A DNA stretch of 64,000 nt, taken from NCBI GenBank assembly GCA_964016885.1, contig OZ024741.1:48050001-48114000 (forward strand), given 5' to 3'. Below the pieces are notes generated by a model, which ran no database searches, was not told the DNA's origin, and saw only the letters and a list, made by a program, of their open reading frames with translations. This document shows, in pieces, positions 1,117 to 57,203 of this stretch (positions are counted from its first letter, which is position 1; the number at the start of each line of letters is the position of its first letter). The position numbers were made by a program, and so were the translations under genes. The DNA comes from Eledone cirrhosa. Its lineage: Eukaryota.

Positions 1117-1543
1117 ACATATATATATATATATATTTCTATATATATATATATATATATATATATATATTTCTATATATATATTTCTATATATATATAT
1201 ATATATATATATATATATATTTCTATATATATATATATATATATATATATATTTCTATATATATATATATATATATATATATATATTTCTATATATATAT
1301 ATATATATATATATATATATTTCTATATATATATATATATATATATATATATATATTTCTATATATATATATATATATATATATATATTTCTATATATAT
1401 ATATATATATATATATATATATATTTCTATATATATATATATATATATATATATATATATATATTTCTATATATATATATATATATATATATATTTCTAT
1501 ATATATATATATATATATATATATTTCTATATATATATATATA
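1117..1543. repeat. (TA)n microsatellite with TTTC interruptions
   Basis: Direct reading. Confidence 0.95.
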
Positions 1544-1966
1544 AAATATTAAAAAAATAATAATGAATAAAAGAAACAGTTCCTTATATTAAACAAAAAA
1601 AGTTCATTATTTAACGATCGTTTCTAGGATATATATGTGTTAGAATTGGCATGCATATTCAACAGATCTATGTACAAAATTATACAAAATTATACAAACT
1701 ATCAAGATTAAATATACATACCAAACACACATATATGCCGTCTTCAGAAATAATTATTTCTGAAGACGGCATATATGTGTGTTTGGTATGTATATTTAAT
1801 CTTGATAGTTTGTATAATTTTGTATAATTTTGTACATAGATCTGTTGAATATGCATGCCAATTCTAACACATATATATCCTAGAAACGATCGTTAAATAA
1901 TGAACTTTTTTTGTTTAATATAAGGAACTGTTTCATTGTTTTATTCATTATTTTTTTTATATTTTA
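1541..1966. repeat. Foldback palindrome of family-A HHR element
   Basis: Arms are reverse complements about TCTTCAGAAATAA|TTATTTCTGAAGA (axis 1753/1754), with a small indel in the outer arms. Confidence 0.9.
1753..1901 (+). ncRNA. Hammerhead ribozyme family A (mirror copy on - strand at about 1606-1754)
   Basis: ATTATTT-CTGAAGA(1760-1766)...GAAAC-GATC-GTT(1883-1894)-AAATAAT. Confidence 0.7.
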
Positions 1967-2158
1967 TATATATATATATATATATAGAAATATATATAGA
2001 AATATATATATATATATATAGAAATATATATATATATATATAGAAATATATATATATATATATATATATATATATATATATATATATATATATATATATA
2101 TAGAAATATATATATATATATACAATATTAAATAAATGGAAACTATATTTATAAAACC

Positions 2159-2235
2159 ATATTTATTTCATTATATATATTTCAGGGATATCATATTAAC
2201 AATATGCTATGCCTTCCTCAGACAAAATACAATAT
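2159..2235 (-). ncRNA. Hammerhead ribozyme family B
   Basis: Reverse strand: ATATTGTATTTTGT-CTGAGGA-AGGC..CCCT-GAAAT-ATAT-ATA-ATGAAATAAATAT; homologous to 18515-18777 and 56612-56687. Confidence 0.65.
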
Positions 2236-2404
2236 AAACAGTTTTATAGATAAATAGATTCGACATACCGTAACAACATCGACTTGCATTTGAAGAGGTT
2301 GATTTGGCAATATTGTAAATATACTCCAAATATTTGTCGAGTGCTTTTATATCAGTTATAAATATTTACTAGTTGTAACCCAACGATTTTAAATATAACT
2401 TTCC

Positions 2405-3288
2405 ATATATATATATATATATATATATATATAGAAATATATATATATATATATATATATATATATATATATATATATATATATATATATATATAGAAAT
2501 ATATATATATATATATATATATATATATATATATATATATATATATATATATAGAAATATATATATATATATATATATATAGAAATATATATATATATAT
2601 ATATATATATATATATATATATATATATATATATATATATATATATATATATATATATATATATATATATATATATATATAGAAATATATATATATATAT
2701 ATATATATATATATATATATATAGAAATATATATATATATATATATATATATATATATAGAAATATATATATATATATATATATATATATAGAAATATAT
2801 ATATATATATATATATATATATATATATATATATATATAGATATATATATATAGATATATATATATAGAAATATATATATATATATATAGAAATATATAT
2901 AGATATATATATATATATATATAGAAATATATATATATATATATATATATATATATATATATATATATATAGAAATATATATATATATATATATATATAT
3001 ATATATATATATATATATATATATATATAGAAATATATATAGATATATATATATATATATATAGAAATATATATATATATATATATATATATATATATAT
3101 ATAGAAATATATATATATATATATATATATATATATATATATACTATATATATATATATATATATATAGAAATATATATATATGTATATATATATATGTA
3201 TATATATATATATATATATAGAAATATATATATATGTATATATATATATATATAGAAATATATATAGATATATATATATATATATATA
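2405..3288. repeat. (TA)n microsatellite with GAAA interruptions
   Basis: Direct reading. Confidence 0.95.
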
Positions 3289-3392
3289 AATGAAGTAATT
3301 CCATCGGAAAAGTCCAGGAAAAAAGAGTGCTCTATGTATGCAACAGAGCTTAATTATTATTATTATTATGTAATAAACAACATAAGGCAATT

Positions 3393-3455
3393 ATTCCATT
3401 TACCAGTGGTTTCTTAAAAGCAAAAGGTTTTGCTTTCAATCCTCAGAATGAAAAA
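3393..3455 (-). ncRNA. Canonical type I hammerhead ribozyme, family C
   Basis: Reverse strand: TTTCATT-CTGAGGA-TTGAAAGCAAAA/TTTTGCTTTTAA-GAAACC-ACT-GGTA-AATGGAA; all core residues present, GUA site. Confidence 0.85.
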
Positions 3456-3554
3456 TCCTGGTTTGTTTATTGAATATGGATTCTAAAAACAAAAATGCAA
3501 TCTATATGAAACTGAGGCTGGAAAAGGGAGAAGGAAAGGAAAAATAAAATAAAA

Positions 3555-56026: not shown

Positions 56027-56254
56027 ATAAAGATTAAGTCGTTTTCAAATATGAAAACAGATAAATGTAGGTGAAGAAGTTTTAACTGCTCAAAAATACG
56101 AGATTTATTACAGTAAACTGCACATAAAGCTACATACAATTTTTAAAAAAAGCATGAATTCCTTAGTACGCATGTTTATGTATACACATAGAGCAAATAT
56201 TACATTGAAATATTACATTTTATTGTTATATTGTTATATATATATATATATATA

Positions 56255-56400
56255 TATTTATTAAAATAACAGATTAAAGTTTAAGCCAAGAATCGCTGCT
56301 TTCACCCTTAACAGGATCTTCTGGTTAGTTTCAGAAGATCCCATTAAGGGTGAAAGCAGCGATTCTTTGCTTAAACTTTAATCTGTTATTTTAATAAATA
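56255..56400. repeat. Foldback palindrome with divergent family-J HHR-like motifs (CAGAAGA core)
   Basis: AGTTT-CAGAAGA(56332)-T-CCC/GGG-T-GAAAGCA..TGCTT-AAACT and its mirror copy. Confidence 0.75.
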
Positions 56401-56611
56401 TTTGCTCTACGGTTCTTTGATATATATTTATCCTTATCGAGCGCTCTTTGGATTTTAGTCTTCAAATTTATTATTATTACTATATATATATATATATATA
56501 TATATATATATATATATATATATATATATATATATAGTATATCCGGGAGCTTCCAACAGTAATGGTTGCATTCTTTAAGGGTATGTCAATATTTATTTAT
56601 AAAACTGCTCT

Positions 56612-56687
56612 ATATTATATTTTATCTGATGAAAGCAGACCATAATTTAACTTGGTGTCCTTGAAATATGTATAATGAATTAAATAT
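56612..56687 (+). ncRNA. Diverged hammerhead family B
   Basis: CTGATGA at 56626, GAAA at 56663; flanks homologous to 18670-18815. Confidence 0.55.
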
Positions 56688-56828
56688 GGTTTTATAAATA
56701 TAGTTTCCATTTGTTAATATCGTATATATATGTATATATATATAACAGTACCTTACTTACTGTGGTTACCCCCGGTTGAACCCAGGAAAAACCTCATATA
56801 TATATATATATATATGAATGATATATAT

Positions 56829-56951
56829 TTTAATATAGAAATGGCTTCTACAGGACTAGAACTGTTTCATTCGAAGGAAATCATTAGGAAAGCTGATGAT
56901 TTCCTTTGAATGAAACAGTTCTAGTCCCGTCGAAGCCATTTCTATATTAAA
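56829..56951. repeat. Foldback palindrome with divergent family-K HHR cores
   Basis: CTGATGA(56893)-T-TTC/GAA-T-GAAAC..GTC; mirror has CTAATGA; 5-nt spacer; stem I 5' arm lost. Confidence 0.75.
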
Positions 56952-57066
56952 AATGTATACTCTGCTATGTATTGACCACCTTACTTACTGTGGTTACCCC
57001 CGATTAAACTCAGGATACACCTCTCTCTCTGTCTCTGTCTCTCTCTCTCTCTCTCTCCATATATAT

Positions 57067-57203
57067 ATATTTATTAAAATAACAGATTAAAGTTTAAGCA
57101 AAGAATCGCTGCTTTCACCCTTAACGGGATCTTCTGAAGATCTCGTTAAGGGTGAAAGCAGCGATTCTTTGCTTAAACTTTAATCTGTTATTTTAATAAA
57201 TAT
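57067..57203. repeat. Foldback palindrome of family J with axis inside the HHR core
   Basis: GATCTTC-T-GAAGATC, axis at T57135. Confidence 0.85.

Follow-up and report, generated by a model that had tools for sequence, protein, structure and literature searches.

The formation of the inverted ends and one-sided tail of Penelope-like elements (PLEs) is still under study, with features of the PLE cycle described as still undefined (PMC8557442) and its later steps as unvalidated (PMC11167929). The question is raised by a window of 64,000 nucleotides of the genome of Eledone cirrhosa (the whole stretch of DNA analysed, contig OZ024741.1, positions 48,050,001 to 48,114,000), in which palindromes appeared to have their symmetry axis at the core of a hammerhead ribozyme. 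The original prediction explained these as MITE-like foldbacks, formed where reverse transcription stalls or switches template at the folded ribozyme.

Self-alignment of the window, taken from a 3.0-Gb genome, after masking of (TA)n recovered all seven palindromes at the places predicted. The inverted pairs lie at 1544-1964 (axis 1753/54), 12728-13185 (with a 146-nt spacer), 18471-18821, 26248-26704, 56257-56398, 56828-56952 and 57071-57199, with arm identities of 89-98%, and the predicted distances between axis and core were also correct. The palindromes are head-to-head pLTR stubs of six Penelope-like families lying in (TA)n (Table 1), labelled A (1544-1964), B (12728), C (56257 and 57071), D (56828), E (18391) and F (26248), and their arms fold in silico into long hairpins, transcripts of which were originally proposed as possible dsRNA substrates for ADAR or Dicer. 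Positions are given relative to the first base of the hammerhead core, unless they are window coordinates. A further, older palindrome was identified at 30531-30722, with 85% identity and arms without a CTGANGA core.

Table 1. Palindromic stubs and associated features of Penelope-like families in the window
Feature	Window positions	Strand	Description
Family A pLTR stub, inverted arm	1544..1754	-	-7 to +207, short 3' end
Family A pLTR stub, direct arm	1753..1964	+	-7 to +207; 2 nt (AT) overlap with inverted arm
Predicted type I hammerhead, family A	1753..1901	+	core 1760, long helix II, GAAA 1883
Older non-inverted family A copy, 3' part	776..1108	+	native sequence upstream of core, long tail
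Family B inverted arm	12728..12883	-	about +149 to long end
Family B element	12881..18305	+	5' pLTR begins at core; CTG common to inverted arm
Family E palindrome	18391..18821	.	left arm long, right arm short, axis 18646/47
Family F palindrome	26248..26745	.	short left arm to -68; long right arm from about -97
Family C palindrome	56257..56480	.	short left arm 0 to +69; long right arm -8 to +154
Family D palindrome	56828..57015	.	short left arm past core upstream (at least -4)
Family C palindrome	57071..57289	.	short left, long right arm; axis 57135 within core

Within the family B element, the RT/GIY-YIG frames (15385-17624) are broken, other repeats are inserted and the 3' pLTR, with its core at 18060, has the short end. 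The family E cores lie at 18577 (minus strand) and 18717 (plus strand), with the axis approximately 70 nt upstream of them. The long right arm of the family D palindrome starts at the core (56893), and its arms form a crossed pair, in which the short arm reaches further 5'. For the second family C palindrome, the axis had been placed inside the core; the native family C core is CAGAAGA, and the CTG at 57134 was found to be created by the joint itself, with position 57135 being an A in about half of the raw reads (read set X21).

YxDD and YIG motifs were identified in families A (L133, L122), C (L279, L288), E (L296) and B (the copy in the window). These four families, in which the pLTR is linked to an ORF predicted to encode a reverse transcriptase (RT) with a C-terminal GIY-YIG domain, can be categorized as endonuclease-bearing (EN+) PLEs, with Pfam giving weak matches below the cut-off for the PLE frames of the window. 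A CxCx5C linker was found in families A (L133), C (L279) and E (L296), a feature described together with RT/GIY-YIG for the Hydra clade (PMC8557442), and RWR, where the Hydra clade has an RWK-type motif, was found in family C (L279, L288), with (TA)n flanks present. The DKT motif was found only in the window ORF 54719-56044, and family B was judged not to be Hydra, as it possesses DKS and a Cx2-5CxxC linker. Exact-match anchors, which give lower bounds, placed the genome copy numbers at at least 6,745 (A), 1,534 (B), 25,513 (C), 32,575 (D), 25,772 (E) and 2,103 (F). Other Penelope-like sequence in the window includes a broken ORF at 53593-56044 on the minus strand with RWR and DKT motifs (Hydra-type), and RT/GIY-YIG frames at 59165-62445 and 27489-28421, both on the minus strand, the former resembling that of family B.

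Hammerheads were assigned by motif, folding and covariation, with those of families B, C, E and F assigned by motif only. The presence of CUGANGA and GAAA boxes around three helices corresponds to the type I (minimal) hammerhead, for which self-cleavage is predicted; in the window copy of family A the cut would fall after position 1894. A native family A copy folds as a type I hammerhead with a z-score of -5.86. In family D, 85% of cells are paired and covariation is modest, lies in helix I and was reached by 7 of 500 shuffles, with some rows lying near joints. Single-sequence minimum-energy folds of families B to F were unremarkable (z -1.2 to 0.1). Core variants were found to be U4A in family C and U3-A8 in family F (window core at 26555), the latter having been described previously (PMC4209133). 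A search of the window with Rfam gave no hammerhead match at gathering or E-value thresholds, and matches to Rfam miRNAs were rejected as generic hairpin or AT-repeat matches. Further single hammerhead-like cores are located at 2221, 3446, 4760 and 11635 (minus strand) and at 26095, 30186/30193 and 56626 (plus strand), those at 2221 and 56626 being family E ends. Two tandem, retrozyme-like units of 310 bp were also observed at 11954-12611, with minus-strand cores at 12144 and 12454.

The 5' ends of copies were surveyed using the first anchor matches on contig C1. The anchors lie downstream of the core, so that copies were not selected by their 5' end; ends downstream of the anchor are invisible in this survey, both arms of a palindrome are counted, and some far-upstream "ends" reflect subfamily divergence only. 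Approximately 88 of the first 100 matches listed were fetched for family A, and 30-60 copies for each of the others. Among these sampled copies, ends within -10 to +3 of the core were found for 36 of 88 in family A, 19 of 54 in family C and 14 of 38 in family D, against 1 of 60 in family E and none of 30 in each of families B and F (A versus E, Fisher's test, p = 4e-9). Family E ends were instead found at -89 to -86 (10 of 60 sampled), an Inr-like TCA/TTA-CT site, and the 8 and 13 ends seen for families B and F avoid the core with no clear edge.

The axis thus tracks a position that is particular to each family, and in only three of the six is this position close to the ribozyme. The rule that it sits at the core held for families A, C and D but not for E, B and F among the sampled copies. 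The axis at 12881 was correctly placed, but is an outlier for family B. The palindromes of families E and F had been added as support, but they are counter-examples, their joints lying upstream of the core by approximately 70 nt in family E and by 68-97 nt in family F. The broader expectation was borne out, as Penelope inverted pLTRs made during reverse transcription are real and their breakpoints are clustered, not uniform.

Genome-wide, 509 joints were identified near the family A core, with none for a reversed control pattern. Family E showed 218 joints at its Inr-like site in one subfamily (control 2) and 89 near its core (control 6), the latter without an edge. The clusters have a sharp upstream edge at -7 (A), -5 (C), -5/-6 (D) and -89 (E), although a few family E arms continue upstream past the Inr-like site. 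The family A pile-up, with its hard edge at -7/-8, includes non-inverted copies joined to (TA)n. Truncated copies without an inversion thus have their ends there too, and the hot spot is shared by inverted and non-inverted copies.

The edge coincides with the first base of helix I in family C and subfamily D1, where start site and ribozyme edge are therefore confounded; family E alone clearly separates the RNA start site from the ribozyme edge and serves as a natural control separating promoter from ribozyme. Stalling or template switching of RT at the folded hammerhead, as originally proposed, would fit the strong clustering beside the core in families A, C and D, as well as twelve inversions in family A that are guided by helix I (below). 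This is nonetheless very unlikely, as families E, B and F possess cores without clustering there, the pile-up lies on the far (5') side, which RT reaches last, and the hard upstream edge and an extra G found at many joints would go unexplained. In family E, the pile-up and its cap-like extra G lie 89 nt from an intact core. One family E copy (L119) carries an inverted piece from just upstream of its direct arm, like a classical L1 twin-priming inversion.

The extra G was examined where the native base differs from it. In family A, where the native base before -7 is C, a G precedes the -7 start in 16 of 41 arms, versus 2 of 89 arms with other starts, in a set that includes 40 loci chosen as palindromes; by eye, a G before -7 was also seen in 32 of the 100 rows listed from 1,535 matches. 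Family E, with a native base of C or T, showed a G in 13 of 27 arms ending within -2 to +1, among 41 loci chosen as palindromes. Both arms of each palindrome were counted, so these are not independent observations, and many of the joint G's could be templated by the other arm. This does not apply to L310, L065 and L070, in which a G lies between the flank and the first base, or to L287, in which both arms extend to -5 with one non-native G:C between them. Sixteen family A arms agree with the native sequence as far as -10 and are ambiguous in this respect. An extra G derived from the cap is recognised for L1 (PMC11702581).

Promoter-like motifs were found beside some of the edges. Subfamily D1 possesses TATAAATA at -36, a TATA-box motif 30 nt before the edge, and an Inr-like site at -6. 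No TATA box was found at approximately -30 in families A and C. In D. virilis Penelope, the pLTR contains an internal promoter that lacks a TATA box but possesses Inr and DPE elements (PMC2377424). Taken from these DNA features, the centre of the palindromes likely marks the capped 5' end of an uncut sense RNA.

A different origin of the edge would be twin priming on an RNA whose 5' end was processed (spliced, trimmed or re-capped) at the front of helix I. The edges of family C and subfamily D1 fall where this would place them, and an intron in D. virilis ends at the 5' end of helix I (PMC4209133). The family E edge, however, lies 89 nt from the ribozyme at an Inr-like site, the TATA-box motif of D1 is at the expected distance, and no AG acceptor precedes the edges in families A, C, D1 and E, making a processed end unlikely.

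Ribozyme cleavage was also considered as the main source of the 5' ends, and was rejected because starts at the predicted cut are rare in family A. Only 102 matches start there, and about 30 of the 100 listed were judged by eye to be point variants, leaving at most approximately 70 cut-site starts versus 1,535 at -7. This rarity fits the finding that uncut RNA is the main template of the PLE PAc in vitro (PMC11167929). Twelve of the family A cut-site rows were found to be inversions guided by helix I complementarity, so the ribozyme sequence has a real but minor role in the joints. To judge from the joints, the RNA used as template probably carries a ribozyme that is, for the most part, intact.

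Palindrome structure was investigated using 61 family A palindromes, in which two outer-end positions recur, +208 in 55 arms and +342 in 56. Long/short pairing was found in 51 of 61, giving an inverted, 5'-truncated copy with a one-ended tail; in nine others one arm is interrupted by an internal rearrangement or has diverged, and the window palindrome is the sole short/short pair. Families C, D and E showed the same pairing, with tails of approximately 85 nt in family C and 134 nt in family A. The short end is likewise found in copies without an inversion that extend to the 5' edge (L065, L070). Arm differences in family A had a median of 0 within an insertion and 4 between insertions, and this sharing of variants makes it likely that a single RNA, or RNAs of a single locus, served as template for both arms. 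The joints differ between loci and the two outer ends are unequal. A MITE is a fixed unit with matching terminal inverted repeats that is copied whole by a DNA transposase, so the description of these palindromes as MITE-like was not upheld.

Twelve insertions consist of a short direct arm with an inverted arm made of tail sequence only (family A: L038, L129, L130, L149, L151; C: L086, L089, L275, L281, L286; D: L195; E: L107). A single fold-back cDNA cannot make such tail-only arms, because a folded-back copy must lie within its template. By eye, and omitting three complex loci, the family A arm reaching further 5' was the short one in 10 (crossed) and the long one in 12 (nested). Later flipping of the spacer could mimic crossed pairs, but not the non-overlapping class. 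In family A, a perfect palindrome with no loop was seen at twelve joints, located at -7 or -5.

Self-priming has been proposed for such palindromes (PMC3846280): one cDNA would reach the capped 5' end, fold back, prime its own second strand and stop at the short site. The shared variants of the arms, the many joints with short loops and microhomology, and the twelve inversions guided by helix I would suit such a fold-back. The inverted arm absent from the direct arm in twelve insertions and the near-equal numbers of crossed and nested pairs do not, nor does the loop of under 3 nt that spacer-less palindromes would need, or the use of the short end by non-inverted copies. The foldback of one cDNA, which had also been part of the original prediction, is refuted as a general route by the non-overlapping class and is decidedly improbable as the main origin, although it could explain some nested joints.

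The palindromes are extremely unlikely to be foldback artefacts of long-read sequencing or assembly. No read record was found to span a whole window palindrome with unique flanks; joints of the same kind do occur in raw Illumina reads, which may derive from loci other than those of the window. Illumina reads of another study contain an opposite-strand joint at -7 of family A in 4 reads with 3 starts (X22), and joints from the family C edge in 11 and 10 reads, with 8 and 7 starts. Fixed, unequal outer ends combined with varied joints also speak against an artefact. A>G differences in the DNA reads reflect other copies.

The explanation that we prefer, at a probability of roughly three in four, is that the palindromes are stubs of endonuclease-bearing PLEs in which the centre corresponds to the capped RNA 5' end and each end of the cut (TA)n target primed one of two cDNAs. 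The pLTR promoter would start a capped RNA at an Inr-like site, and the element's protein would cut the (TA)n target. RT would then begin at two sites, the distal (tail) one primed by one target end and the proximal one by the second, with both cDNAs running towards the cap and often copying it as a C. Their 3' ends would be joined by microhomology (0-4 nt) or with a small number of extra bases, followed by the filling in of second strands by repair. An axis at the ribozyme would be expected only in families whose RNA begins at the front of helix I, and short stubs would result from RT starts located within the pLTR that also contains the RNA start. The absence of a TATA box in families A and C, the short/short window palindrome of family A and the family E arms that pass the Inr-like site are points against it. 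In addition, no strand difference in RT start was seen for PAc in vitro (PMC11167929), unlike what the long/short rule would suggest.

A stricter form of paired priming would be an obligate, coordinated double target-primed reaction, in which one RNP, possibly a dimer, allocates the two target ends to the distal and the proximal start, respectively, on one uncut capped RNA and the cDNAs are fused, with the hammerhead being copied through as far as the cap and the first 9-13 nt sometimes re-copied in a telomerase-like manner. We consider the chances of this form to be evenly divided. If it is true, paired priming would directly produce the inverted pLTR as well as the one-sided tail, and the RNA start of any PLE family could be read from its joints using genomic sequence only. 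The thousands of joints per family give exact, testable positions for the predicted RNA start and the two RT starts, along with the long/short rule.

Much of the structure is already known, namely joint palindromes, the one-sided tail and opposite-strand hammerhead pairs, which have been noted 100-700 bp apart (PMC4209133). The insertion unit of EN+ PLEs (PMC3846280, PMC8557442) likewise has a head-to-head inverted pLTR, a joint palindrome, a one-ended tail, a hammerhead in the pLTR and (TA)n targets. In the accessible text of these papers, unlike here, the joint is attributed to self-priming on an antisense template and the tail to endonuclease resolution, the joints are not mapped to the RNA start and a cap-derived G is not described; the tails are also shorter than those found here.

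The PAc Poseidon system in vitro (PMC11167929) likewise cuts and extends both target strands, has a tail bounded by two internal RT starts and uses uncut RNA as its main template, with a protein that is predicted to be a dimer. The joining of the two cDNAs was not followed in that work, and no difference in start was seen between strands, in contrast to the strict long/short pairing here.

In twin priming of LINE-1 (PMC11702581), a second target end likewise primes on the RNA, with joining by microhomology and a cap-derived extra G. There, internal priming is described as variable and the inverted pieces as adjacent and nearly non-overlapping, whereas here both starts are fixed and the shared region is copied twice. 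The structure of the twelve tail-only arms suggests that a second target end primes an independent cDNA, as in L1. L1-type variable internal priming with little overlap was not found in family A, where the starts are fixed at two sites and the shared region is duplicated in full. Metazoan non-LTR retrozymes (10.64898/2026.07.22.740005) also carry a type I hammerhead and are derived from PLE pLTRs, but are described as tandem arrays, unlike the two-armed stubs of ORF-bearing families found here. A search of the openly accessible literature identified no paper linking PLE joints with a capped start or putting forward paired priming for PLEs. What appears to be new is the proposed mechanism of a capped start with paired priming, for which the DNA offers good support.

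The first 9-13 nt of the predicted RNA were found to be re-copied in tandem, each time ending at a G, at the joint of L048 and in L337 and L389. L048 has three tandem copies of the first 13 nt, and L389 is a double start in family E. The repeats of L048 and L389 suggest repeated re-priming at the template end, resembling telomerase-like repeat addition. Among family E joints (L351-L390), approximately 15 cases were observed of arms that end at +2 and are followed by an A in the cDNA, often with the same short word.

Other repeats were also identified in the window. LINE-type RT frames are located at 4944-7214, 19292-21532 and 22686-24197 on the minus strand and at 41043-43202 on the plus strand, with the one that was scanned giving a match to RVT_1 and to a PHD-finger. 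A 5.8-kb strand-skewed tandem array of a 42-bp unit, with open frames in several phases, occupies 31609-37366.
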